64,000 bases of DNA from Dictyostelium discoideum. Lineage: Eukaryota. Shown here one piece after another: positions 36,181 through 64,000 of the stretch. Below the pieces are notes generated by a model. The model ran no database searches. It had not been told where the DNA came from and saw nothing but the letters and a program-made list of their open reading frames with translations. Positions within the stretch are counted from its first letter, which is position 1; each line of letters starts with the position of its first letter. Where the stretch lies: positions 1,152,001 through 1,216,000 of the forward strand of contig CM000154.2 of assembly GCA_000004695.1 (NCBI GenBank), in the 5' to 3' direction. A program made the translations under genes and the position numbers.

Positions 36181-36309
36181 TTAATTTTTATTTTTATTTC
36201 TTAAAGCAAGAAACATATCAAACTCATCGATAGAGGTTTCATCAATAACTGCTTTGTTGTTATTGTTATTATTTATAATATTACCAGAATTATTTAAGGG
36301 AGGTAATGG

Positions 36310-36369
<60 letters not shown>

Positions 36370-37898
36370 TAAAAATGTTCCAGGGTTACTTGAAGACATA
36401 TGATACATTGAAGGGGTTGGTGGACCAAAATCATTGAATGCCGATGATTGTGATAATGGTGATTGATCGAAAAAGTTTGAAGAGTGATAAGATGCTTGTG
36501 GAATCATACCAGAGCTATTTATTAATGGTGGTAATATTGATGATGTTGATGAAAAACTACTACAATTACTATTATTAATATTGTTGTTATTATTATTATT
36601 TAAATTATTACTTGTACTTGAAACTGACGGTATTTTATTTGAACCAGAAATTGATGAAGGTTGTTGAGCTGAAACAAATTGTGAAAAGAAAACCTCACCA
36701 GATTGAGCTATGCCATTGTTATTGTTACTAATTTGAGGTGTTGAAGTTGGTTCACCAAGTGGCCATCCATCTGTAAAAAATTTATTTCCATTATCAACTT
36801 GACTACCACCTCCACCTATTGGTAATGGTGATGTTGTAATATGAGTTTCCAAAGGATTATTTGAGAAGAAGTCACTACCACTATTTTTAGTTTGATTATT
36901 ATTATTTACAATTGAAGTTGTGTCACTTCCGTTAATGTTGTTGTTGTTATTGATGATGTTATTAGTGTTATTAATAGATTGAGGAGCAGGTGATGAACCA
37001 CTAACATTAATTGCAGAAGAAACACTACCAATAGTTGAAGAAAGTGGTGGTAATGGATTAAAATCATCAGCACCATTACTTGTATTTATTGGTGTTGAAA
37101 TCTGTTCCTCTTGAATTGATTTAACAATTAATGGTTTTGGTAAAGATGAGGAATGTTTTAAGCTTGTACCCAATACCTCCATAACTTTTGAAGAAGTTAC
37201 TTGCGGGAATTCACAATGATTAGTTGTATCATTACTATTTTGATTTGGATCGAATGATGAACCCAATAGAGATGGAGTTCTAACCACTGGATTAACTGTT
37301 GAATATGATCTTTGGTGTCCTCTATGAGAAAGCTTTAAACTCAAAACTGGATTTGGTGAATCTGGTGGTGGCATTAAAACTTTACCACAATTATTAAAAC
37401 CAATATTATTGTTTGTATTAACACCACCACTACTACCACCACCACTACTACCACTACTACCACCACCACCACCACCACCACTGTTATTTAAAGATCCACC
37501 AGAATTATTTAGACCAGATTTTTTAGAAATTGATAATGGAATTGAAAATTGTGATGGGGTTTCAGGTATTTTAAATAGGTTTTTATCGACAGAAGCACAC
37601 CTTTTAAATTCTTCAAACTCTAAATTTGTTGGTGTAAAATTTGAACCATTCATTGTAATAATTGGTGGTGGTGATGAATTACTATCCTTTCTTGGTGGTA
37701 AATTACCTAAATTAGAAACAGACTGACTAACCAATTGTTTATGTGGTAATGTTGGTGATTGTGGAAATAAAAACTCATGAATATCCTCAACCATCAAGTG
37801 ATGTTTATCATCAGGTGAAAACTTTTGATGTAATAATTCCCAAGGTATTGATTTCATTGGTATAAATATTCTTAATGGTCTGCTTGTTAATTTACCAC

Positions 37899-37983
<85 letters not shown>

Positions 37984-39739
37984 TATACTTGTTAAACCTA
38001 CTGTTGATGATGATCTGCTTTTTGTAATTAATCCATTTAATACTAATGATGGTAATTTTGATAATGATTCACTTTGATTTGATAGAATTTGTTTTCTATC
38101 AACACTTGCGCTACTATTAAAACTATTATTATTGTTTATATTATTGTTTATATTATTGTTATTACTATTATTATTATTATTATTATTATTTGCAATATTA
38201 TTATTAATATTATTATTGTTGTTTATATTGTTGTTATTACTAACATTATTGTTGTTATTGTTATTACTAACATTATTGTTGTTGTTGTTGTTGTTATTGT
38301 TATTGTTATTGTTATTGTTATTGTTGTTATTGTTATTGTTGTTATTGTTATTGTTGTTGTTGTTATTATTGTTTATATTATTATTATTATTATTGTTATT
38401 ATTCGCATTACTACCACTGACAGGTAAATTATTTAAATTACTATATCCACTATTATTATAATGACTATTAATGATATGATTAAGTGGGATTATACTATTT
38501 GCAATATCTGATAATGATTTATGATGTGATACAGATGATTTTAAAGGGGATGGTTTTAGTGATGAATCGCCACCACTATTACCACCATGAGATGGACTAC
38601 CCATTGTAAATGATGTTGATGTACTCTTTGTAATTGATGCTCCAGCATTCAATATTCCATTTGCTAATGATGCTAAATTTGATCTCTGTGCGCTTAATGT
38701 TGCTGTAATTAAATTTGAATGTGATGATGTTGGAATTGGTTGAGTTTGTTGTTGCTGCTGTTGTTGTTTTAAATCTGCGATTGTAACTGTTTTCGACCTA
38801 CCTACATTTGATAATGGTGGACTATTACCATTGTTGCTGTTGTTGTTATTTCCATTTCCACCTAAATTGTTGCTGCTACTAACTAAACCAGAAGCTGTAT
38901 TAAATCCATTAGTATTTCCTCTATTTAAACTGCTACTATTAATATTATTACTACTATTATTACTACTATTATTATTATTTATTACCTGACCACGACTGTT
39001 ATTAGTTACAGTACTTGAAGTTACTGATACCGAAGCAAGTGGAGGTCCGTTATTACTGCTATTACTATTATTATTATTATTATTATTACTGCTACCATTA
39101 CTATTACTACTACTACTATTTATACCATTTATTAAAGAAGCCAAGAAAGATCTATCCACACTACCATTGAATCTACCATTAAGTGGGTTTGAAGCTGGTG
39201 ATTTCATAACAGAGAGAGATTGTTGAGGTTGTAATTGTTTTTGTTGTTGTTGTACTTGTTTAGCTAATTTCTCTTTTTCCTTTTCTTTTTCTTTTTCTTT
39301 TTCTTTATTTCTAAGGGTATTATTAATTGAAGCTGTAACAGGATGTTTTAAATCATAAATTACTGCTTCTTTTTCAAAAATACCTGGGGGTGTAACACCT
39401 TTAAAATAATACTCTTCTCTCTCTGCTATGAATCTTTCAAACATTTGTGATGAACAAAATACATTAAAGAACTAAAATTAAAATTAAAAAAAAAAAAAAA
39501 AAAAAAAAATTACAAATTAGTATTTTTCTGTTTTTTTTACTTTTTTTTTTTTTCAATTATTAACTTACCTTTGTTGGAGTTATAAGTTGAGAATCAATGA
39601 AAGAAATTTTATCAAAAATCATTTTCTTTTTATCCATATCCTTTAAAAAGAACCTTCTATATGTACCCAATACTGTTACAAAAAATTTTCTAAATGTTTC
39701 AACTATTATTTTATTATCATAATGTTTATTTTCTAATTG

Positions 39740-42945: not shown

Positions 42946-45900
42946 TTAATCAGTAGTATCAGAGGCAGATTGGTAGAGTGGATTTTCAGCGGCAGATGCA
43001 GATTGTTCATAAAGTGGATTAGAGCTAACACCATCACCAAGGAAAGCGGCTTCACTAAAGAAAGTATCAGTTGGTGGTGCAGCTTTTCTTAATAATCTCC
43101 AAGCTGCGGCAGCAATTAAAGCAGTACCAGCGGCAGCACCAGCAATAGCACCTGTTAAAACGGTCTTATTGTCATTGGTTTGAGTGGTGGTTTCTGCTTC
43201 TTCAAATGTGACATCAACATAACCAGTTGCATTCATATGTGATTGAGCTCTAATGGCTGATGGTGCATTGTAACCTAAATCATCAACAAAGAGTTTAAGA
43301 CGATAGTTACCAGCAGTTACAGCATTGACAGTAATTGTTTGAATTGATTCATTGAGAGCAGATTTAGTATCGAGACATGAAATAGATGCAAGTGAAGTGT
43401 GGAGTTCACAATTTTGCATTCTTTTGAGTGAGATTTTAATATCTTCAAGTGATGCAACATTTTCATCATTTTCACCAACAATTGAAACTACAATTGAAAC
43501 ATTATTGCTTTTACCGGAATCTGGATCATCAAATTGAACATTTTCAACTGAAAGGGCTAACTTGGTAGTGGTGGAATAGGTTTTATTTCCGGCAAGAACA
43601 AATGGTGGAATGTTATATCTGTTAACGTTGATAACTGCTGTTAAGGTTGGTGAATCGAGACCACCATTATCTGTCATGAAAAATGGAATACGTACATAGC
43701 TATTACCAGATGAATCCGGGACAGGTGAATATACAACATAGTAATAGCCATCACTACTTTGCTCGACAGTTGTATGGTTACGATCAATAATAGAGCCTTT
43801 TAAGTCTGGTACAGTTTCATCTTTGGTATATAAAGTACCACGAAGTGCTGTGGTGACTGTTGAAAGTAATGGAGTGACTTGATCAACATCAACATCACTA
43901 CCAGTGTATTTGATTAAAACGGATGTATTGATATTCATATTGACAATATAGGTTGAGTCAAATAATACCTCACCATTATCTTTGGAAGTGTCATCTAAAA
44001 CCTTGTAACTAATTAATTGGATTGTTGGTGGTTGATTGACATGAATAACATTGACGGTGATAGTGTAAAGTTCAGAGTAAAGATCACCATCAAACAATTT
44101 GAATTCAATAAAATCGAAATCATTACCATATTCATTATGTGGTGGCATGTATGCAAAATTGTAAGAGGTTGAACCAGTTTGTGAATTTGGATAGGATGTA
44201 ATTTCTGTATCCATAGTACCTTCGCTACCCATGCTATGGGCAATTGATAAAGTACCTCTACCAGAGAATTTCAAAACTTGAATATTAACTTCAGAACCAC
44301 CATTTCCAACTTTACCTTGAACGTTTAATGGATAACGAGTGTTTTGTAAAACATCAATTACATCGGCTCCGGTGTAAACTGGTGGATTTCTTGGTCTGAC
44401 ACTAAAGGTAACTACGTCTGAATCTGATACAAGACCTTGTTGATCAACAACAGAGTATGGAATTGAATCTAATGGACCAATGTTATCAATGGTATTCCAA
44501 TTGGAAAGACCCGCATTTGGTTTGTATGAAAGAGCATCTAATTCGTAAGTTTCTTCACCAATTAATTTTGATGTAAGAACAACATTACCATTCAAAAGTT
44601 GACCATTGGCTGGGAGAGCATAAATCTTAGCTTTGAGGTCTGATGGCGATTCAATATCAGTACCATTGAATGTGAATGGTTCGGTTGTATCTTGATCGAG
44701 TTCAACTTGAATACCTTTTGTAGTTGGTGGAGTGTTAATATAGGTAAATTGGACAAAACCAGTTACATTACCAGTTGATAATACACCATATGGAGTGGTT
44801 AATTTAGAATCATCTTTACAGCTAATTATAAAGGAATCAGAGAAACTACTGAATGGAGTTGGTGAAATTTTAGATGCATCCAATAATTTGAAACTATAAC
44901 TATTGCTTGAGAGCGATTTTGGAAGGGTGGTAATTAATTCATTTTCTGAATCGTACATACTGATTTGCTTTGGAGCTGCTTGAACTGAACATAATACATT
45001 ATCACCATCAAAATCATAGGTAACCAATGTTTGAGTTTCACCAGCACCACTTTGAGATGTGAATGAGTAGGAATTGACTGTTAAAGTTGGTTTATGATTA
45101 ATTGGGTTAACAGTGACGGTTGTACTTTCAACTGATGACGTTTCTTTGAAAGTATCCATAACTTGATATGAATAACTATCAGTACCCTTGAAACCAGGAT
45201 TTGGTCTATAGTAATGAGTGAATGGTGCGTTTCCTTGAGTGGCAACGTTGTTACCATTTTGGACAGTAACTAAAATACCATTTGATGGTGGAGTGGTAAT
45301 AATAGCAATTAAATTATTAACATTTGGTGGATTGTAATCATCGATATCAGCATCGGTACCAGTTACAACATGTGCATCAGAATCTAAATAATCTTGATAA
45401 ACACTGTAATCTTGAATTTTAGTTACAACTGGTGCAACATTGGCACGATCTCCAACAATATTTACAACAACAGAGACAGTGTTTGATTCTAAACCTTCAT
45501 CATCAGTTGATGTGAATGAAATGGATGCATAATTTGAAATTGCGGAAGGTTCTCCATTGGTGAAACAAATAAGTTTATTGGCTTTTGTTGAAGAGTATGA
45601 GATACCAGAGAATTGATCTTTAAGAGAAATAATGGTGCTATCAGATGAACCAGAAGTACATGAACAATCATTAGTTGAACAGGTGTAGAAATTACCATTA
45701 TTACCATTTTTAATTGCAGTAATGGTGAATAATGCTTTTGTGGAATCTGAATCAGTTGATACCAAAGTTAATGAAACAGAACCTCTTGGAATTACTGAAA
45801 TTGGTGATGTTGATGATGAAACTGGTGCTACATTTGCATGTTGAATCTTGAAAGAAACTGAACAAGAAGCTTGTGAGAATGCATTTGATGTATCAATAGC

Positions 45901-48821
45901 TCTAAATTCTAATGTAACAGTGGCATCATTTTTTGGATTAACAGTTTGAGTGAAAATAACACTATCTCCAGTTGTAATTTTAGTTGATGAAGTAATAGAA
46001 GCACCTTTGTAAGTGAATGTACCGTAGGCAGTTAAATCAGTTGGTTTAGTAAATTGGAGGAATGGTGAGGCGTCTTCAAAATCAGTTGCAGTCATACTGA
46101 ATGTTGATTGGGTATTTAAGGTTGTTGTGATTGTTGATGAAATTGATGAACATTCTGGTAATTGATTTACTTTGTTGATGGTGATTGAAATTGTTGCATA
46201 GGTATTACTTTCGACACAACCATCAAAAGCAACAAATCTAATAGTATTTGAGGCTAAATAATTTTCGAACGGTGTATAGGTGAAAATTTCAGAGGCTGCA
46301 TAATAATTTGATTGTTGTTTTGAAACATCTTTACCATTGCTATCGGTAATAACACCAGCATTAGCTGTTAAGAATGTAGTGAATTTGAATTGTAAAATAT
46401 TTGCATCTGGATCAGTACCTGTTAATTTGAAAGTGGCTAATGAATTTTGATTGACAGAGAATGAACCTGAAGTTGCAACTGGTGGACGATTGTAATTGAT
46501 TGAAATATCAGTTTGACCATAACCCATTGCAGAAATTGTAGCAACTGGTGAAACAATTGTTGTACCTGATGGAAGTGATAATTTAAGACCATTGACAGTT
46601 TGTTGAGTTGATGAAGATGATGAAACTGTAACAGTTGATGGGACACTTGAAACAAATGAAGAACCAGTTGCAGTTGGATCAGATTTATAAACGATTTTGG
46701 ATAAAACATTCTTTACACCAGTATTAGCTTTAGCAGACCAATCACTAGCTGATGTTCCTGAAGCGGTAACAACACTACCAAAACCAGCTGAAGTGAGAGC
46801 TGAATTCCAATTAGTCATAGATGAGGCACCAAAACTAACGACCACTGGTACAATTGATTTTCCAATGAATTTATTTGTGAATGCAGTGATTTGTGCTGAA
46901 CTAGATGAATGATCACTATCGGTAATGATAACAATAACTTTGAATGAACCAGAATTCCAACCAACTGAAGCACTTGCAGCATCAGTAGCAGCCAAGAGTG
47001 AATTTCCATTAGAAGTGGTTGAATAAGTTGCTGGTTTATAAAGTCCAATGGCTGCAGCAATTGGACTACCCATAACTTGTGATGGACTAAATGAAATTGG
47101 TGATGGGGTGTAATCAGAGAAATAACCAATACCAAATTGAGCGGTTTCACAAATATTTTCAATGTTTGAAACAAATGTTGACATACCAGATTTAATATAA
47201 CCAAAGGCAGTAGTTGAAGCAAGATTGGCATCAACTAAAACGTAAACATCGAGATTATTAATTGGGTTTGGAATACTAACAATAGTTGGTACTTCATAGT
47301 TTGGTGTACTTGTGAGATAAACTTGAACTTTGGTTGGATTAACAAATGATGGATTACTGTATGAGATTGAGGTGTTGCTATTTGATAAATCTTTACAACT
47401 TTGAGATGATGAAATACTGCAATCGGCACCAGTCCAACCATTAGAACATAAACATTTACCATCACCATTAATACCACTATTTGGAACACCATTTACACAA
47501 GGTGGAACGGCAACACAATTTTCACCATAATAACCATCTTTACATTCAAAACATTTAGATGCTGGATCCCAATTATCAACACATTTACAAACACCACTCT
47601 CTGTATAACCACCATTACCACAATCTGGTTTAGCCACTAAAATTGTAAAAGAACGAACCGATGATGTTAAACCAGTTGAATCCGAGCAAACAAGAGAAAC
47701 AACATATGAACCGGTATTTGCAGTTGTTGGTGTCCATGTAATGGTTGTATTGGAGGTGGCACCTGTAACAGGAGTTTTGGTAGTGACACCAACTGGAAGA
47801 TTTGCAGTTTGAATGGTTGTTGATCTTCCAGACATAATAGTTTTACAAGAGAAAGTTAAACTTGTAGAGGCACCAATTGGGAATAATTTTGTATCACCAT
47901 CATCTGGAGTTGGTGGAGAGACAAAATCTGGTGGGTAATTACTAGTAGTACAAGTATCGATTGTGGTTGAACCACTGTTTGTGCAACCTTTACATTGAGA
48001 GTTTTGATTACATGCTGTACCAGCGTTTGAACATGTTGGATCACAAGTACCAGGTTCAGCAACTGATTGAAGAATGAAATCCACAACAATGTAGGCACCT
48101 CTTGAATCTAAAATATAAATTTGAGTTGAATAAAGACCAATTTGAGTTGGAAGGAAATAACAGTTACCTTTGGAATCAATTGTCATACCACTTGGTTGAG
48201 TCATTGTATAAACTTTTGAAAAGGAGAAAGTGAGTGCTGATGAGTCTGCATTTTGAACATTTTGATCGGATGCAATAACACGGAAGTTATTGTTTTTATT
48301 TGCAACTACTTGAACGATTGGAATCATACCAGATACTGGTGACCAATTTACCATTGACAATTCATTTTTATTATCGATTTGTACACTTGTTGTAATATTC
48401 CATGATGCATCTTTATTATTTAAAAGAGAACTAATTCTACAACAACTTGTGAAAATGGCGGTATATTCTCTAATTGTTCCAGAGTTTTGAGCTGGATAAG
48501 CTTTGGTTGTCGTGAAAGTACCTGTGAACCAATTATTTTTAACATCAAAATCTGTAACTGTAACAGAGACTGTTACTGATCCAACACCACTTCCAAAATT
48601 TAATGTACCAACATTAACTAAATTTCCAACCTTAATACTTGATGTTGATGAATAGAAAAAGGTTGTTCTATATGCAAAGTTTGATGTGAATTTGATGGTT
48701 CTATAATCTGTTGTTGGTTGCCAACTAATTGTACCAAAACGGAAATGTGATGCTTTGGAAAAAAAAAAATAATAAAAAAAAAATTTAAAATTAATATTTT
48801 TTTTTCACCTTTTCTGTTTAA

Positions 48822-50241: not shown

Positions 50242-53200
50242 TTAATCATCGGCACCTTCATAAATTCTTGATACATATGATGTTTCAGATTTTTCGTAAA
50301 TTGGACTACTTGAAACATCACCCATAAAAGCACCTTCATCAAAGAAAGTATCAGTTGGTGGGGATGATCTTTTTATCATTTTCCATAAACCAATTACAAG
50401 TAATGCTGCACCAGCAGAAGCACCAGCAATTGCGCCTGATAAAACTGTTTTATTGTCGGTATTTTGGGTGGTAGCAATTGGGTCATTAATTATAATATTC
50501 ACATATCCAGTTGCATTTAAATGTGATTCAGCTCTAACTGTTGATGGTGCACTATAGCCCAAATCATCAATGAATAATTTTAGACGATATTTTCCACTAA
50601 TTGAACCAATGACTGAGATTGTTGATATTGATGCATTAAGAGATTTCTTTGATCCAATACATGTGATAAGGGCAAGATTTAGATTTGGGTTACATTTGGG
50701 AGTGGCTTGAGTAAAGGATAATTTAATAATGGAAAGTGGTAAAACTTCATCACCATCATTATCATCAACAATTGATACAATTAATGAAATATTATTATTA
50801 ACTGAATCTGGATCATCCAATGTTATATTTGTAATTGAAATGGTTAGATTAACTTTACCTACAAAAGTGTTTGAATTTGATCCAATGTAGATTTTTGGTT
50901 GAAGGTTAACAGAGTTTACATTTATAATTACAGTGGAAGTTTGTGACACAACTCCTTTTTCATCGATAACATTAAATGGAACACGAGCATAATTATCACC
51001 AGTTGTACCTTTAGTTGGTATGAAAATTACATACCAATAGCCATCTTCATTTAGTGGAATTAATTGAGATGTATGGTTGATTTCTCTTCCTAAATAGTCT
51101 GAGGAGTTATCATCAAATGAATAAATTAAACCACGAAGTGGAAGATTTGAAACTAAAGCAACTAAAGGGACTGTTTGGTTATCTATATCACTACCATAAA
51201 TTTTAATTAGTACAGAATCATTAACATTCATATTAATTGTTGAACCATCAATTTGAATTTCTTTTTCAAATTGATTTAAAATTCTATAACTTATTAATTC
51301 AGTGGCTGGTGGTTGATTCACATGAATAACATTAACTGTAATATTATAAATTTTAGAGATAATATCATTATCAAATAAAATAAATTGAATTTGATCAAAG
51401 TTTGAACCAAATTGATTTCTTGGTGGATTATATGCAAAATTGTAGGATGTTGAACCAAGTTGTTGGCTTGGGTACTCTGTTATTAGTTTATCAAAGAAAC
51501 CTTCTTTACCCATACTATGGGAAATTGATAAATTACCTCTACCACTGAAACTTAAAACTCGTATACTAACAGATAAACCGCCTCCACCAAGTTCTCCCTC
51601 AATTGTTAATGGGAAACGAGTATTTTGTAATACACTAATATCAGAGTCACCAAGGTAAATTGGTGGGTTTCTAGATCTAACTTGGAATGATATTGTTGAA
51701 GAAGGAGATAAAAGACCTTGTGGATCGACGATTGAGTATGAAATTCTATCCAATGGACCTAAATGATCCACTGTATCCCAATTTGATTGACCTGGTAAAG
51801 GTGTATATGTTAATTCATCCAAACCAAAAGTATTGTCTCCACCAATCAATTCTTTTGTCAAAACCACATTGCTATCAATGGATTTGGAAAGTTTACCATT
51901 GATTGGTAGAGAGTACAATAAAACTTTTAATAGCTTTTCATTGGATTCAATATCAGAACCTTCAAAAGAAAATGCAATGAATGAATCTTGTGAAAGTTTA
52001 ACTGAACTAATATTAGTTTTTGGTGGAGTGTTTATGTAATAGTATTGAACATTACCTATTACATCACCTGTTGACAATACACCTTTTGGTGTTGTTTTTT
52101 CACTATCATCAACACAGTTAATGCTAAAGGTACTTAAAACATTCGAAAATGGGGTTGGTGTAATGATTGAAGGGTCCAACAATTTAAAACTATAGGCATT
52201 ATTTGGTAACACCATTGGCACTGATTTTATTTGCACACCTTTGTCATCATACATAAGGATTTGTTTTGGAAGGGATATTACTGAGCAAATTACATTATCA
52301 CCATCTTGGTCACTGGTATTTAAAGTTTCTATAACCCCATCACCACTCTCTGATGTAAATTTATAAACATCAATCAAAACATTTGGTTTATGATTAATTG
52401 GTTTGATAGTAATAGTTGTAGATTCAATTGATGATTTTGCATTAAATGTGTCAATAACTTGATATGAATAACTATCAGTACCAGCGTACCCTGGATTTGG
52501 TCTATAATAATGAGTGAAAGGTGCATTTCCTTGAATGGCTATAGAACTACCATTTTGGACAGTAACTAAAATACCATTCGATGGTGGATTTGTAATTATA
52601 GCAATTAAATTATTAGCATTTTGTGGATTGTAATCATCGATATCAGCATCGGTACCAGTTACAACATGTGCATCAGAATCTAAATAATCTTGATAAACAC
52701 TGTAATCTTGAATTTTATTTACGACTGGCGCAACATTAGTACGATAACCAACAATATTAACTATTACAGTGGCCAAATTTGATTCTAAACCTTCATCATC
52801 AGTTGATGTGAATGATATGAATGCATAGTTTGGAACTGCAGAAGGTTCTGAATTGGTGAAACAAATTGGAAGACTGGCTTGATTTTTGGCGTATTGAATC
52901 TGTGAATACTTTGTATTGTCAGTAATATCGATACGATCATTTGATCCAGCAACACAAGAACAGCTATTATCAGTGCATGAATAGAATGTACCTGTTTTAC
53001 CAGCATTAACCTTTTTTATGGTAAATATAGCAGATTTTGAATCTATATCAGTTGATAATAAAGATAGGGGATTCCCGATACTTCTTGGAATAGTAACAGA
53101 TGTTCCATCATTTGAAATTGGTGCTTCATTCGTATGTGTAATATTAATAGTTTGGGTACATAAATTTGAAAATAAACCAGATGAATCTTTTGATTTGAAA

Positions 53201-56185
53201 GTCAAAGGAACTAAAAGATTTAATGGATTCTTTGTTTGTTTGAAAAGTATTTTCACACTCTTTTTAATTATTGTATCTATAGTTACTTTAGCACCAATAT
53301 ATGTTAGTTGTCCATATTGTTCTAAGGATGCTAGCTCTGAGCTCACAATAAACTGTGCATTAAGAATTAATAGTTGATCATCATCTTCAAAATCAGTAGC
53401 AGTAAATGAAAAATCAACCGTTTTTTCAAATTCAGATATAACAATAGCTGAACTACATTCAGGTGGTTGATTCACCTTATTGATAGAGAATGAAACTTTT
53501 GCACTTGAATCACTAGTTAAACAACCATCATCAGCAATAAAACTAATATACAATGATTTCAAATAGTTTTTATAAGGTGAAAATGTAAATTTTTCACTTC
53601 CTGCGTATAATTCATCCTTTTGAGTTGAAACATCAATACCTTTACTTGTTTTAATTAAACCTTCTGTACTCGATAAAAATGATGTAAATTTAAAGGTCAA
53701 AATATTTCTATCTGGATCAGAGCCTTCCAATTGAAATATAGCATCAGAGTTTTGATTACAAGAAATTCCAAATGGATTTGGTGTTGGTGGATGATTGTAG
53801 TTTGTTTTAATATCGATACAACCATATCCTATAGTACACACTCTAAGTGATGGATTTATACTACTATTGTAATTGATTGGTAAAGATAAAGAAAGACCAG
53901 ACAAAGTTTTGACAACTTCAATATCTGCATCTATAGGTAAATTTTCTGGAATTGATTTTAAAAATGCAAGACCACCAGAGTTATCATTAACTTTAAATAT
54001 AATATTCTGTAACACTCCATTACCTAATACTGAGCTTGATGTTTCTTTGAATGCTGTCTTTACAAAATTTTTCCAACCTTGAGCATCAGATGATAATTTA
54101 TAAGCTCCAAAACCACATTGATATAATGTTGAATTCCAATTACTTAGAGAAACATTAATTCCAATAACTACAGGAGCAATTGACTTTTCAATGAATGCAT
54201 TTTTAAATTCATCTATTTCTGTTTGGATGGGACTTAAAGGAAGATCTGTTCTTGGTATAATGATCATAGACTTAAAGGCATTCGTTCTCCAACCTAGTGG
54301 AGTCTTTGCTGCTTTGGTTGCAGCCGATAAAGATTTTCCTGTAATTGTATGATTATAGCCACTCCATTTTTTATTTTCTAGTGATGTTACAATAGAGTCT
54401 GATGGAATTTTAGCTAAATCAGCGAATAAACCATTTTCATCAATAATGCCCAACCCAAATGATACACTTTCAGGAGATAGTTCCAAAATTTTCGTTTTGG
54501 CGTCATTCAATTGAGATAGAATATTGTTGAATTCATTTTGAGTGTTTTGATTAATATCAATCAAAAAGTAAACATCAATTAATTTATTTTTCTCTGGAAT
54601 TTTAATATTGACTTGTATTTGATACTTTTGATTATTTGCCAAATATACTTGAATGCCTACTGGGTTAATATATGATTGCTCCATAATTGAAGAACTAACA
54701 ACACCACTTTTTAATGACCCACATGATTGACTGTTTGAAATTGAACAATCATCGCCAATCCAACCATTGTTACAATAGCATTTACCATCACCCAAAATTC
54801 CACTATTGGAAACACCATTGACACAAAGTGGCACAGCAATACACTTTTCTCCATAATATCCTTTTGAACAATCTAAACAATCACTTTCAGAGGTAAAATT
54901 CTTTGGACAAACACAAATACCTTTATCTCTAAATCCCCCATTTGAACAATCAGGTTTTTCTTTTAGAAAAAATTTAAAAATTAATAAAATTAAATTTATA
55001 AATAAAATAATTAAAAAAAGAAAACTTACTAATAATAATTTCTATTGAAGTTGTAATTTTTATCAAAGAGTCGGTACATACTATATATTTAACATATGTT
55101 CCATAATCTTGAAAAGATGTCGGGAACCATAATAAATTTATTGTTGATTTTGGTCCAATTTCTAAAATTTTTGTTATGAAACCAATTGGAAAACCGACAG
55201 GTTGAATAGTTGTGTTTAAACCAATTGCATCTGTTGTACAAGAAACATTAAAACCTTCATTTTGCTCACCAATAACAAATGTTTGTGTTTGATTGGGCTT
55301 TGGAGTTGGTGGGTAAATAAAAATAGGCTTTGTTGATAAACAAGCGTCTTGTGTTTTATTATATACTAAATTGCCACAATTAATACAGTCACTGTTTTTT
55401 GTACAAATTTCACCACTGTTATTGCACTGATGATGACAAAACCCATTTTGTATCTCTGATTGGAGGATAAAGTCAAGAGTTATATACGCACCATTTTTAT
55501 CTGTAATTATTACCTTTGCGCAATATAAACCAACAGATGATGGCATGAAATATACCATACCAGTGTTTTTATCAAGTGTCATCCCATCAGGCTTTGCTTC
55601 GCCAAATGTAAACACAAGATTAGAATACTCTCCAGGTCTGAGATGTTGATCAGAGGCAGGGATATTGAAATTATTATTTCTACCATATGTTACTGGATAG
55701 ATAGGTACCATTCCTGATACTGGTGACCAATTAATTTTATCAAGTGAATTACTATTATCAATTTGTACCAATGATTTTATTGTAAAATCACCATCTTTTT
55801 CATTCAAAAGAGTACTGATTCTACAGCACAACGAATAGAAGGCAGTATAGTTAGCAGTTTTTCCTACTTCCAATGTTGGGTATGTGTGGGAAAATACTGA
55901 AGTGCCAGTAAACCAATCATCTTTAGAGTCAACCGTTGTTAGTATTAATTGATAAGTACTCACAACATTATCTCCAAAATTGAAAGAAATTTTTATAAAA
56001 TCATTTTTTTGGGGCAAATTGGAGAACCAGGCACTGGTTCTGAAGCCAAGGTCAAGAGTAAATTGTATTTCATTGTATTGAGTAGTTGGTTGCCATTTAA
56101 ATGTACCAAACCTAATATGAGAAGCTTTTATTATTAAAAAAATTATAATAATATAAGAATTTTTGTTTTTTTTTTTTGATTTTTA

Positions 56186-57764: not shown

Positions 57765-60700
57765 TTAGTCAGTATTATCAGAGGCAGATTGATAAAGTGG
57801 ATTTTCAGCGGCAGATGCAGATTGTTCGTAAAGTGGATTGGCATTAACACCGTCACCAAGGAAAGCGGCTTCACTAAAGAAAGTATCAGTTGGTGGTGCA
57901 GCTTTTCTTAATAATTTCCAAGCAGCAGCAGCAATTAAAGCAGTACCAGCGGCAGCACCAGCAATAGCACCTGTTAAAACAGTCTTATTATTAGTGGTTT
58001 GTGTGGTAGCTTCTGGTGCATTAACTTTAACATCAACATAACCAGTTGCATTTAAATGTGATTGAGCTCTAATGGCTGATGGTGCATTGTAACCTAAATC
58101 ATCAACAAAGAGTTTAAGACGATAGTCACCAGCAGTTGATGCGATAACAGAAATTGAAACAATTGAACTGTTGAGTGGTTTCTTTGGTCCAATACATGTG
58201 ATTGAAGCTAAAGTTTGATGATATTCACACATTGGTGATTGAGTGAATGAAAGTTTAATATCTTTGAGTGATGCAACTTTGTCATCTTTTTGACCAACTA
58301 TTGAAACAACAATTGAAACATTGTTAGTTGTAGAATCTGGATCATCAAATTGTACACCCATTACAGAGGCAGTTAAATTGGTTTGAGTTGTGTAGTTTTT
58401 GTTACCAATGATTACAAATGGTGCAATATTGACAGTATTAACATTGATTAACACTCCGACGATTGGTGAATTAAGACCGCCATTGTCAGTCATAATAAAT
58501 GTAATACGTGCATAACTTTCACCAGAGGTTTTTTTTGATGGTACAAATACGACATAGTAAAAACCATCAGCATTTTGTTCAACATTTGAAGAGTTACGAG
58601 TGATTGGCGCACCTGATGAATTTGAAGCAGTTGGATTATAAGCGTAAAGCGAACCTCGAAGTGGGAAATTTGGAATCATTGAAATTAATGGAGTAACTTG
58701 ATCAACATCAATATCATTACCAGAATATTTAATTAGGACAGTGGTATTAATATTCATATTAATTAATGAAGTATTTTCAAATAAGACTTCACTTGAAACG
58801 CCATCTAAAATCTTGTAACTAACTAATTCGATTGTTGGTGGTTGGTTGACATGAATAACATTAACAGTGACTGTATAAAGTTCAGAGTAAAGATCACCAT
58901 CAAAGAGTTTGAAGTAAATGAAATCAAAATCATTACCATATTTATTACGTGGTGGCATGTATGCATAGTTGTATGAAGTTGAACCAGATTGTTGATTTGG
59001 ATATGATGTAATTTCTGAATCCATAGTACCTTCGCTACCCATATTGTGAGCGATACTTAAAGTACCATTGTTAGTGAATCCAATAACTTGGATATTAACT
59101 TCAGAACCACCACCACCAATTCTACTAGTGATAGTTAATGGATAACGAGTGTTTTGTAAAACATCAATTACTCTTGCACCAGTATAAACTGGTGGATTTC
59201 TTGGTCTAACACTAAAGTAAACGATATCAGAATCTGATGTAAGACCTTGTTGATCAATGACAGTGTATGAAATTGAATCGAGTGGACTTTGTTGATCAAT
59301 GGTATTCCAATTTGAAAGACCTGCATTTGGTTTGTATGAAAGTGCATTAAGGTTGTATGTTTCAGAAGCAATATTTGTTGTAGTAAGAGCAACACCAGTA
59401 GCGTTAATTAAAAGTTGACCATTGATTGGTAATGAAAGGATTTTAACTTTAATATCATCTTTTGGTGTTTCAATATCAGAACCATTAAAAGTGAATACTT
59501 TGACTGTATCTTGATCAAGTTGAACAGTGCCACCTTGAGTAGTTGGTGGAGTATTAATATAAGTATATTGAACATTAGCAGTTACTACACCAGTTGATAA
59601 TGTACCAAATGGAATAGTCTTTGTAGTAACATCAGTACATTTGACAGCGAATGAACTTGAAACACTTGTGAATGGAGTTGGAGTAATTTTTGATGGATCT
59701 AATAACTTGAAACTGTATGAAGTACCAGAGAGAACAGTTGGAACTGATTCAATTAAATTACCATCTGAATCATACATACCAATTTGACTTGGAATGGAAA
59801 CAACTGAACAAATAACACTATCACCATCTGGATCACTGGTGACCAAGTCTTGAGTTTCACCATCACCACTTTGAGATGTGAAAGAATATGAACTGACAAC
59901 AACACTTGGCTTGTGATTAATTGGGTTAACAGTGACGGTGGTACTTTCAATTGATGACCCAGCTTTGAAAGTGTCAACAACTTGATATGAATAACTATCA
60001 GTACCCTTGAAACCAGGATTTGGTCTATAGTAATGAGTGAATGGAGCTTTTCCTTGAGTGGCAGCAATGCTACCATTTTGAAGAGTAACTAAAATACCAT
60101 TGGATGGTGGAGTGGTAATTATAGCAATTAAATTATTAACATTTGGTGGATTGTAATCATCGATATCAGCATCGGTACCAGTTACAACATGTGCATCAGA
60201 ATCTAAATAATCTTGATAAACACTGTAACCTTGAATTTTAGTTACAACTGGTGCAACATTAGTACGATTACCAACAATATTAACGACTACATTGACAGAA
60301 TCTGATTCTAAACCTTGGTTATCAGTTGATGTGAATGAAATGGATGCATAATTTGAAATTGCGGAAGGTTCTCCATTGGTGAAACAAATAAGTTTGTTGG
60401 CTACTTTGTTGGTATAAGAAATTGATGTGTAGGTTGTAGTTGTAGAAATAGAGGTATATATGTTGGTTTGAGTAGAATTACATGTACAATCATTGGTTGA
60501 ACAAGTGTAGAAATCACCCTTTGCGCCCTTGTTAACGGATTTAATGGTGAATTTTGCAGATGTTGAATCTGAATCAGTTGATACCAAAGTTAATGAAACA
60601 GAACCTCTTGGAATTACTGAAATTGGTGATGTTGATGATGAAACTGGTTTAATATTTGTATGAACAAGTTTAACAGTTAATGTACAAGTACTTGTAGAGA

Positions 60701-63502
60701 TTGCACCAACACTATCGACAGCTTGGAATGATACTGGAACATCAATAGCATTGGTTGGATTAACGGTTTGGGTAAATGTGATTTCAGAACTAGTTGGAAT
60801 TTTAGATGTTGAAGTAACAGCAACACCACCAAAAGTTAATGTACCATATGCAGTTAAATCGGTTGGACTAGTGAATTGAATGAATGGTGTGGCATCTTCA
60901 AAATCGGAAGCACTCAATACAAATTTGTTAGCAACATTCAAAGTTGGTGAAATTGTTTTTTGTTGACAAGTTGGTAATTGATTGACTTTGTTGATGGTGA
61001 TTGAAACGGTTGCAGATGTAGTACTATTAAGACAACCATCATTGGCAACGAAACTAACACTGATTGGTAATAAATAGTTAATGGCTGGAGTGAAGGTGAA
61101 AGTCTCGGTTGAATCGTAATATTTACTTTTTTGGGTTGAAACATCTTTATTATTACTATCGGTAATAACACCAACGTCACTTGTTAAGAAGGTAGTGAAA
61201 GCAAAGGTTAAAATATTGAAATCTGGATCAGTACCTGTTAATTTAAAGGTAGCAAATGAATTTTGATTTACAGAGAATGCAGTTCCGGTTGGAGTTGGTG
61301 GACGATTGTAATTGATTGAAAAATCAGTTTGGCCAAAACCAATTGCTGAAACTGATGCAACTGGTGATACGATTGAGGTTGCTGATGGTTTGGTTAAAAC
61401 AAGACCACTAACGGTTTTAACGGTATCAGCGGTGGAAGATACAGCGACATCTGATGGTGTGGATTTAACGAATGAAGCGCCATTGGTTGTATTATCGGTT
61501 TTATAAACAACATTTGATAAAACACTCTTTAAACCAGCTACAGCTTTAGCAGAGATATCGATGGATGTAGCAGCAGAGACAGTGCTATAACCAAAATCAG
61601 CGGTTGAAATTGCTGAATTCCAATTTGGAATTGATGAGGCACCAAAACCAACAACAACTGGCGCAATTGAATTTGAAATGTAAGTATTGACGAAATTAGT
61701 TATAGCAGCAGAGTTTGAAGAATGATCTTTATCGGTAAGTACAACAATTGCTTTAAAGGAGCCAGAGTTCCAACCATTTGAGTTTGATGCAGCATTTGTT
61801 GCACCCAAAAGTGAATTACCACTTGAGGTTGAAGTATAAGATGAGACAGCATAACCATTGATAGTATTAACGATATTGCTACCAATGATTGAACCTGGAG
61901 CAAAATTGAAACCAGATGAAGAGGCATCACTGAAATAACCAATACCAAATTGAGTTGTTTCGCAAATACTCTTTGAAACCTCAGTGACAAATGTTGAAAT
62001 ACTTGATTGAACAACACCAAAGAGAGTTGATGAGGCGACATTGACATCGACTAAAACGAAAACGTCAATTTTTGTTAATTTTTGTGGAATGTTTAATGAT
62101 GTAGTTAAAGCGAAATCACTTTCGATATATAGTTGAACTTTGGTTGGATTGACAAAGAATGATGGAACAGAGGTGGAGAGGAGAATAGAATTTTTCAAAT
62201 CTTTACAACTTTGAGATAATGGAACATCACATTTATCACCACTGTAACCATTGATACACATACATTTACCATCACCTAAAATACCTTCATTTGGAATACC
62301 TTTATCGCATGGTGGGGTTGGATCACAATTTTGACCATAATAACCGGTACTACAATCGAAACAATTTGAAGTTGGATCCCATTTATCACCATCACATTTA
62401 CATTTACCAGTTGAAGGATCTTTATGACCATTACCACATTCTGGTTTAGCAATGAAAATTGTAAATGAACGAGATGATGATGTTAAACCATTTGAATCAT
62501 AACAAAAGATTGAAGTTACATAAACACCAACATTTGCAGCGACTGGAGTCCATGAAAGAATATTTTTAACTGTACCTTGACTTGAAGTTCCTTCTGCAAT
62601 GGCTGCACCAGCTGGTACATTAGCAGCTTGGATACCGACAGTTCTAGTTGTATAATCTGATTTACATGAGAGTGTGATACTATTTGGTTGACCAACAGTG
62701 AATGGAATTAATTGATTATCTTGTGGGGTTGGTGAAACAAAGTATGGTGGATAATTAGTTGTTGAACAAGTATTGCTAGTTGTTGAACCAGCGTTGGCAC
62801 AATTTTTACATTCTGAATTACCATTACATGTTGCACCACCATTGGAACAACTTGGATCACATTTACCTGGTTCAGTAATTGATTCTAAAATGAAATCGAC
62901 TACGGCATATGCTGGTGGAACGGCATCATCTGTGATATAAATTTGAGTAGAATAAAGACCAACTGAAGTTGGTAAGAAAAAAACATGACCAGTACTATTG
63001 ATTTTCATTCCAGATGGTTGGGTCATTGGATAAACGGTTGAGAAAGAGAATGAAAGTTTATCATCAACATTTGGGTCACTTGCAATAACACGGAAGTTAT
63101 TATTTTTGTTGGCAATAACTTGGACAATTGGTAACATACCTGATACTGGTGAATGATTTACTGATGGCCAATTTTTGTTATCAAGATAAACACTACTAGT
63201 AATGTTCCAATCAGCATCTTTATTATTGAGAAGTGTACTAATTCTACAACATGATGTAAACATGGCAAGATATTGTTTTGAGTTGTTTGGAGTTAAGGCA
63301 GTATAGGTTTTAGTAAAGATAAATTGACCAAAGAACCAATCATTCTTGGTATCAAAACTGGTCACAGATGCCCTAACTGATGTAGATGAACCATCACCAA
63401 AAGTTAAAGTACCAAGAGTAATTTTTTCTCCAATTACAATTGATGATGAGCTTGTTTTATAAAATGTAGTTCTAAATGCGAAATTTGTTGTAAATTTAAT
63501 AA

Positions 63503-63551
<49 letters not shown>

Positions 63552-63999
63552 AAAAAGAAAAAATTAGTAATTGAATAAAATAAATAAATAATAAGTTACT
63601 TACGTTATGTGCTGTTGTGGGACTCCATGAGATACTACCAAATCTGAAATGGGTGGCTAAAATAAAAAATTAAAAAAAAAAAAAAAATTGAAAAATAAAT
63701 AAAAAAAATGAAAATCGAAAAAAGGTCAGAAAAGTTTTAAAAAGTAATCGATTTTTAGTATTATTATTTTTATATTATTATTATTATTTATTAATATTTA
63801 TTATTATTATTTATTTATTATTTATGTATCTATCCATTTATTTTATTTATTTATTTTAATTTTATTATTTTATTATTATTATTATTTTTATTGTTATTTT
63901 AGTTTTTAATTTTTATTTTAATTTTTAATTTTAGATCTTACCTTCAGTGACACAAAATATTGCAAGTAATACAAATAAAAATTTGAATAAATTATTCAT
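57765..63999 (-). CDS. Sib-family adhesion receptor, near-duplicate of the 42946..48961 gene (sibA/sibC-like); 3 exons join(63942..63999,63604..63656,57765..63503)
   Basis: Signal peptide MNNLFKFLFVLLAIFCVTE with donor G|GTAAGA. A 53-nt exon ATHFRFGSISWSPTTAHN with donor |GTAAGT, a 100-nt poly-T intron, then the main exon. C-terminus '...RKAAPPTDTFFSEAAFLGDGVNANPLYEQSASAAENPLYQSASDNTD'. The tail is about 95% nt-identical to gene 1. The 5' end lies 1 nt from the window edge. Confidence 0.8.
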
Positions 64000-64000
64000 T

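Follow-up and report, generated by a model that had tools for sequence, protein, structure and literature searches.

Interlocus gene conversion is known from textbook cases such as the human fetal globin genes HBG1 and HBG2, the red and green opsins, RHD and RHCE, and CYP21A2 and CYP21A1P. In such conversion, homologous recombination repairs one copy on the template of its neighbour, with the formation of a short heteroduplex tract, and this recombination needs stretches of uninterrupted homology. A GC-biased signature is common in converted tracts, although it is not required. Here we analyze a window of 64,000 nucleotides (nt) of strongly AT-rich DNA from Dictyostelium discoideum AX4 (positions 1,152,001 to 1,216,000 of contig CM000154.2, assembly GCA_000004695.1), which carries three tandem genes of the Sib (Similar to Integrin Beta) family, here called g1, g2 (SibD) and g3 (SibE). 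The three genes have in common a short, almost perfectly identical block. Our results indicate that recurrent interlocus (non-allelic) gene conversion very probably links g1, SibD and SibE of AX4 over a longer tract, of which this block is the youngest part. In open-access text, we found no published description of gene conversion or concerted evolution in Sib genes.

The family comprises the adhesion receptors SibA-E of D. discoideum (PMC9197732, PMC3279395, citing Cornillon et al. 2006, 2008). They bind talin and are the receptors on which the amoeba mainly relies for adhesion to its substrate (PMC9197732, PMC3279395). The three genes of the window, each of ~5.5 kb and all on the minus strand, encode proteins with the Pfam domains vWA_SIBA-E (E 1e-41 to 1e-111), Ig_SibA (E 1e-50 to 1e-59) and Ig_SIBA-E_2nd/3rd. 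These are among the Sib-specific domains, SIBA-E_N included, that precede a C-terminal transmembrane segment and a conserved tail in proteins of the family. In addition, the translations of the long open reading frames (ORFs) of g2 and g3 are exact substrings of AX4 SibD (Q54JA4) and SibE (Q54JA3), respectively, which places the window in AX4 or in a strain identical to it. At the family level, g1, SibD and SibE are no different from the known SibA-E, and the present result is about how the paralogs evolve, not about what they are. SibD, the middle paralog, is indeed only about half identical to its neighbours, as a first-pass annotation of the window had stated: over the whole gene it has 50% amino acid (aa) and 62% nt identity with g1 or g3, compared with 66% and 74% between g1 and g3.

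The block itself is a string of 92 nt that occurs exactly three times in the window by exact pattern match (in plus-strand letters), where no occurrence is expected by chance. The first-pass annotation had reported 118 identical nt starting at 45330, 52615 and 60150. The block is real and present in all three genes, but its length is 92 nt, the longest perfect three-way run being 83 nt (45327-45409, 52623-52705 and 60146-60228), and the three starts were near but off by 1, about 10 and 2 nt. Pairwise, perfect runs reach 95 nt between g1 and g2 and 108 nt between g1 and g3. A single C/T difference had been noted among the copies; there is one within the 92-nt string, in g3, but in the codon alignment it changes GAT to GGT and hence Asp to Gly, and over 45330-45447 there are six variable positions (two in codon 1064 and one each in codons 1067, 1069, 1071 and 1075), five of which come from the extension to 45447. 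The encoded peptide was given correctly and has 31 residues in the codon alignment; the Pfam Big_9 domain, at whose start it lies, spans aa 974-1078 of g1. An AlphaFold2 model of the 180-aa tract, built from a 20-sequence alignment, is of low confidence, with a mean predicted local distance difference test score of 53 and 26-53 in the core.

This core is the peak of a wider homogenized tract of 140 codons, or ~420 nt (Table 1), in which identity is 0.8-0.99 as against a g2 background of 0.45-0.65. The loss of silent divergence is local. Synonymous divergence (dS, Nei-Gojobori) between g2 and g1 or g3 falls from 0.89 over the whole gene to 0.23-0.31 over the whole tract and to 0 in the core, with 0.30-0.41 in the tract minus the core, so that the sliding dS profile proposed as a check does drop where the block lies. 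Over all paralog pairs, dS is 0.14-0.31 in the tract and 0.18-0.41 in its part outside the core, and for this reason the earlier statement that flanking codons differ freely at synonymous sites holds only in part. Furthermore, the longest exact match of g2 with g1 or g3 is 21-22 nt outside the tract versus 83-95 nt inside. A GENECONV-style permutation on silent-comparable codons returned identical runs of 38, 39 and 46 codons, with P<5e-5 (g1-g2), P<5e-5 (g2-g3) and P=6e-4 (g1-g3).

Table 1. Positions in the window of the Sib genes, the homogenized tract and its core
Feature	Positions	Strand	Basis	Remark
g1 long exon	42946..48699	-	ORF list, stop-to-stop frame, Pfam	open frame (listed long ORF 42946-48360); most downstream Sib gene in the window
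g2 (SibD)	50242..56017	-	ORF list, Pfam, AX4 protein match	ORF pieces 50242-54834 and 54974-56017 with a short intron between
g3 (SibE) long exon	57765..63545	-	ORF list, stop-to-stop frame, Pfam, AX4 protein match	listed long ORF 57765-63365
Wider homogenized tract, g1	45157..45576	-	identity and dS profiles, sliding windows, tree and site-pattern tests	140 codons, ~420 nt
Wider homogenized tract, g2 (SibD)	52453..52872	-	same profiles and tests	
Wider homogenized tract, g3 (SibE)	59976..60395	-	same profiles and tests	
Core block, g1	45329..45420	-	pattern match, codon alignment	31-residue peptide, N-terminal end of Big_9 Ig-like domain
Core block, g2 (SibD)	52625..52716	-		identical to g1 over 95 nt, 52623-52717
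Core block, g3 (SibE)	60148..60239	-		one difference from g1/g2, at 60229
Three clustered SibD sites	52665, 52668, 52670 (52665..52670)	-		AX4 GCA CAT GTT (A H V), the g1/g3 state

Nonsynonymous divergence (dN) drops alongside dS, and the tract is the region of lowest dN among the paralogs. This might suggest purifying selection on an essential protein motif which, together with AT-biased codon usage, would make the copies alike without any exchange of sequence. Codon bias is indeed strong: elsewhere in g1, g2 and g3, residues conserved in all three genes have the same codon in 56% of cases. However, in the core 30 out of 30 codons are identical in all three genes, which has a probability of ~10^-7.6 under the genes' own residue-specific rates and of ~10^-12.7 under codon usage, and the codons common to all three copies include minority ones (TAC 0.34, AGT 0.20, GTA 0.19, ACC 0.21 and ATC 0.18). 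Together with the silent-run permutation, this bias-aware calculation bears out the observation that synonymous positions are invariant beyond expectation.

Some sequence is homogenized only between g1 and g3, at 42946-43330 (g1) with 57765-58150 (g3) and at 45743-45826 (g1) with 60565-60648 (g3), the latter an exact run of 84 nt. The 3' ends of g1 and g3, encoding the transmembrane segment and the talin-binding tail, show a proportion of silent differences (pS) of 0.10-0.21 and exact runs of 63-71 nt. These are probably additional conversion tracts not common to SibD.

For comparison between species, a 240-aa piece of g1 gave zero matches in a word-indexed protein search, and an exhaustive representative search then gave full-length Sib homologs. 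Their genomic loci were fetched from other Dictyostelium assemblies, namely D. firmibasis (GCA_036169595.1; loci L001, L002 and L009), the D. discoideum strains Dd2 (GCA_054859385.1; L005) and Dd3 (GCA_054859355.1; L008), a further D. discoideum (GCA_054883475.1; L010 and proteins), cfZ and cfY, both D. cf. discoideum (GCA_054859235.1, L006, and GCA_054859205.1, L007), D. citrinum (GCA_054859325.1; L012) and D. dimigraforme (GCA_054859025.1; L011). Dd2, cfZ, cfY and D. firmibasis have four tandem Sib genes each, in the order g4-g3-g2-g1 (g4 cut at the locus edge). In Dd3, D. firmibasis and D. citrinum, g4 has an EXS-domain gene as its upstream neighbour. A fifth gene is dispersed: it is SibB in D. 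discoideum (L010), and in D. firmibasis (L002) it shares the chromosome of the array, ~100 kb away.

Across the whole alignment in sliding windows, g1 ~45150-45576 is the only contiguous stretch in which each paralog of the window is nearer to the other paralogs than to its D. firmibasis ortholog, and over most of this span the D. firmibasis copies are likewise closer to each other. The topology switches accordingly at the tract. In neighbour-joining trees the tract groups by species with 100% bootstrap, while the rest of the gene groups the g2 orthologs as a pair with 100% bootstrap, and sites that split by species outnumber those that split by g2 orthology 23 to 5 in the tract but are 16 to 296 outside (Fisher ~1e-20). 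In the 93-nt core there are 13 fixed differences from D. firmibasis and no orthology splits. Orthologs in turn are nearly as diverged here as over the gene as a whole, with pS of 0.31-0.44 in tract windows compared with 0.40-0.51 gene-wide, and the tract minus core has a dS of 0.44-0.83 between species. Many of the fixed core differences change amino acids and are common to all tandem copies of a genome; they include the replacement of V by C, of D-A-H-V by A/T-V-H-Q and of A by P, as well as an additional N(SI) following DDYNP. Because the dN of the core between species (0.24-0.29; dN/dS 0.37-1.3) matches or exceeds that of the rest of the gene (0.20-0.29; 0.31-0.38), the core is free of constraint between species, in its nucleotides as well as in its protein sequence, and is uniform only within genomes. 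Replacements that arise this fast, and that are common to all paralogs of a genome, are not predicted for a fixed protein motif, and together with the codon analysis above they make purifying selection with codon bias hardly credible as the explanation.

The same comparison bears on the second of the two explanations offered by the first-pass annotation, which had named either recent gene conversion or an RNA/DNA-level element inside the coding sequence. Silent sites would be held invariant by a structured RNA, a splicing or regulatory signal or a small-RNA target, as is seen over ~30 codons in three genes of one genome, and two short pieces (TAT CAA GAT TAT TTA GAT, and GAT GAT within the DIDDYNP stretch) are the same in 15 out of 15 tandem copies. 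However, these pieces consist mostly of favored codons (CAA 0.98, GAT 0.91, TAT 0.66), and the fixed differences from D. firmibasis and the near gene-wide silent divergence of orthologs are not what such an element predicts. The block is present in the fourth tandem gene, g4, with 1 out of 93 nt different, but it is unconserved in other Sib genes, since 42 out of 93 nt differ in SibB and 37 out of 84 in the single Sib gene of a further scaffold (L003, described below); this is what the annotation itself had set as counting against the element, and on those terms the element is refuted. SibD also varies inside the block among D. discoideum strains. Moreover, the 92 nt fold no better than shuffled sequences (z-score 0.12 on the messenger RNA strand and 0.44 on the other), an Rfam scan of 44900-45900 gave no match at E<=1, and the block does not lie beside an intron. 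We therefore consider an embedded element highly unlikely. Recent gene conversion, by contrast, is strongly supported by the local drop in dS, by the tract tree that follows genomes and by a derived deletion that paralogs have in common.

That deletion is part of a recurrent but lineage-specific pattern. In each of the five genomes that offer three copies for comparison, the distance of g2 from g1 or g3 drops over the same tract from ~0.4-0.5 to 0.3 or less, and mostly to 0.2 or less. Which copies are identical in the core differs between genomes. In AX4 all three are identical (bar g3 60229), whereas the copies of Dd2 have 3-5 differences. In cfZ, g1 equals g3 with no difference and with derived states in common, and g2 differs at 17 positions; in cfY it is g2 and g3 that show no difference, sharing a 15-nt deletion and 8 substitutions, and g1 differs at 10. 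In D. firmibasis, g1 and g2 differ at 4 positions and g3 at 11-13. Two copies are 0/93 apart in D. citrinum, with 8 differences from AX4 g1, and two are again 0/93 apart in D. dimigraforme, where they carry their own insertion and a third copy, resembling g2, has 17 differences. Agreement of derived changes with the state of a paralog is significantly more frequent in the tract than elsewhere in cfY g3 (12/15, p=0.0017), cfZ g1 (18/20, p=0.0015) and cfZ g3 (17/19, p=0.01).

It could be asked whether reads of near-identical paralogs were simply merged in the reference assembly. A collapse of Sib repeats is conceivable, as SibE resembles a g4/g3 hybrid when compared with another assembly whose strain is otherwise identical. 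However, the homogenized tract is found in seven other independent assemblies, the core sequence recurs in the g2, g3 and g4 proteins of the independent assembly GCA_054883475.1, and a 92-nt patch with copy-specific differences within ~30 nt is unlike assembly collapse. An artefact of this kind is thus scarcely plausible.

Two further candidates were rejected. A young duplicate with the rest of the gene under diversifying selection is ruled out by the dS of 0.89 outside the tract and the 100% grouping of g2 orthologs. A shared insertion or mobile element is ruled out as well, because the block keeps the reading frame and both SibB and the L003 gene have a homologous stretch that aligns with it.

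The most recent step toward three-way identity appears to have left a footprint in SibD of AX4. Compared with Dd2, AX4 SibD differs in the core only at the three clustered sites of Table 1, and at all three it has the state of g1 and SibE. Other D. discoideum strains are polymorphic, with GTA AAT ATT (V N I) in Dd2 and an intermediate V H I in the ACTFIW protein. We infer that the three sites mark the last short conversion, which would have run from g1 or SibE into SibD and given the three-way identity. States specific to SibD remain on either side, at codon 1069 (GTC, g1 45427-45429) and codon 1103 (CAA, g1 45325-45327), and therefore the patch of the AX4 lineage spans at most ~100 nt.

We suggest the following course for gene conversion at this locus. 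During homologous-recombination repair of one copy, a neighbouring copy ~7.3-7.5 kb away would serve as template, and a short patch of tens to a few hundred bases would be copied across, wiping out silent and replacement differences alike. Repeated events over the same ~420 nt would preserve the similarity needed for further recombination, whereas in the flanks of SibD drift would have gone too far for it. Since exact matches of g2 with its neighbours are so much shorter outside the tract than inside, recombination would be confined to the tract; it would probably start and resolve only where earlier conversions had preserved homology, making the island self-perpetuating. The last short event in the AX4 lineage would then have overwritten remaining SibD-specific codons, leaving the perfect identity of 83-95 nt.

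Several points weigh against this account. The support is comparative throughout, rather than direct sight of a conversion event. A dS of ~0.9 nears saturation, with alignments made by MAFFT under protein guidance. The polarity of the last event depends on a single outgroup copy, g2 of cfZ, which agrees with the non-AX4 state at two of the three sites; g2 of cfY, itself converted, disagrees. In the AX4 lineage, which offers too few derived sites, the paralog-matching test is non-significant. The signature of GC-biased conversion is not seen, as GC content at third codon positions is 0.13-0.16 in the core and tract and 0.16-0.18 outside. Finally, intrinsic conservation does not explain why this tract and no other is homogenized: the 180-codon segment differs from SibB by ~41%, and the divergence from the dispersed copy of D. 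firmibasis over the whole gene is ~36%.

It would be tempting to see in the choice of tract a selected, co-homogenized module, in which a fast-evolving Asp-rich segment at the start of Big_9, probably surface-exposed, is kept uniform across the tandem Sib receptors. A common ligand or partner would demand sameness, and new variants would spread by conversion and be kept by selection. If true, this would explain why the same ~420 nt are homogenized in 8 out of 8 genomes (five named species) despite the fast change of the core between species. We regard the idea as doubtful, and homogenization by recurrent conversion as the reading that best fits the locus.

Exchange in the array also reaches beyond the short tract. 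In Dd2, cfZ and cfY, the gene in the g3 position is 0-3% different from g1 over ~700 nt of its 5' half (g1 ~45990-46650), and g3 of D. firmibasis is similarly near g1 over the upstream part of that region. The 3' half of g3 is 0-2% different from g4 in most windows. Judged from these distances, g3 is a large-scale mosaic of g1-like and g4-like parts, which is evidence of exchange on the kilobase scale.

AX4 SibE (57765-64000), moreover, is cleanly composed of parts of two genes which other assemblies show separately. The comparison was made with GCA_054883475.1, whose SibB is identical to that of AX4 and whose g2 contains the long-ORF translation of the window's g2 exactly. Against its g4 (P0174), SibE has 0 mismatches over alignment columns ~100-1399, and against its g3 (P0171) 0 mismatches from column ~1300 to the end. 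Relative to L008 and L005, the upstream end of the window matches the start of g4, and the spacer that follows SibE on its downstream side corresponds to the one between g3 and g2. The g3 protein cluster has no AX4 member. Either AX4 lost a gene when g4 and g3 crossed over unequally within their near-identical 3' halves, or the two genes were collapsed in the reference assembly.

Other observations concern the surroundings of these genes. The SibD intron (54835-54973) holds stops, and the Dd2 ortholog (L005 10136-16045) is an uninterrupted open frame of 1970 codons; this may reflect intron loss, or a Dd2 intron that is open by chance. L003 is a single Sib gene beside an EXS-domain gene on scaffold GL871004 of GCA_000190715.1, an assembly which we take to be D. 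purpureum; if so, it suggests that duplication gave rise to the tandem array only once that lineage had branched off. In D. dimigraforme, the third, g2-like Sib copy (L011 18208-23622) lies within a 1224-aa gene call without recorded Pfam hits, and in D. citrinum g3 and g2 are fused into one 3882-aa call (L012 17504-26231), both being gene-model problems of the public annotations. Unrelated to the Sib genes, the window has a minus-strand ORF of 1087 aa at 36181-39444, in whose DNA there are long imperfect repeats of the triplet type (plus-strand ATT/GTT units, ~38070-38480 and 38913-39130), typical of homopolymer-rich Dictyostelium coding sequence.

The case is a well-documented new instance of an ordinary and well-known process, and its value is mainly cautionary. 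Invariant silent sites among the paralogs of one genome mimic an embedded element, and the signal of constraint vanishes once orthologs are compared. The tandem Sib receptors are not evolving independently, and paralog trees, divergence dating and selection tests would be misled unless the tract is masked. In practice, antibodies, probes, guide RNAs and primers directed against the block would hit every tandem copy. The Sib locus is also structurally dynamic, and the hybrid SibE of AX4 is relevant to anyone doing Sib genetics.

Compared with coding-embedded RNA or regulatory elements, the Sib block is alike in its local dS of 0 over ~30 codons, but only within one genome, and it lacks the synonymous suppression between species, the structure signal and the Rfam family of such elements. 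The likeness to textbook interlocus conversion is closer. Here too, short near-identical tracts lie in diverged neighbours, silent and replacement differences are homogenized together, the tract tree follows genomes while the flanks follow orthology, derived substitutions and indels are common to paralogs, and events are polymorphic among strains. The Sib tract departs from the textbook cases in having no GC bias and in a core that is not a slowly evolving motif between species. It is also unlike them in that the same ~420-nt tract is homogenized in every genome examined, in several species, while the rest of SibD is 35-50% diverged.

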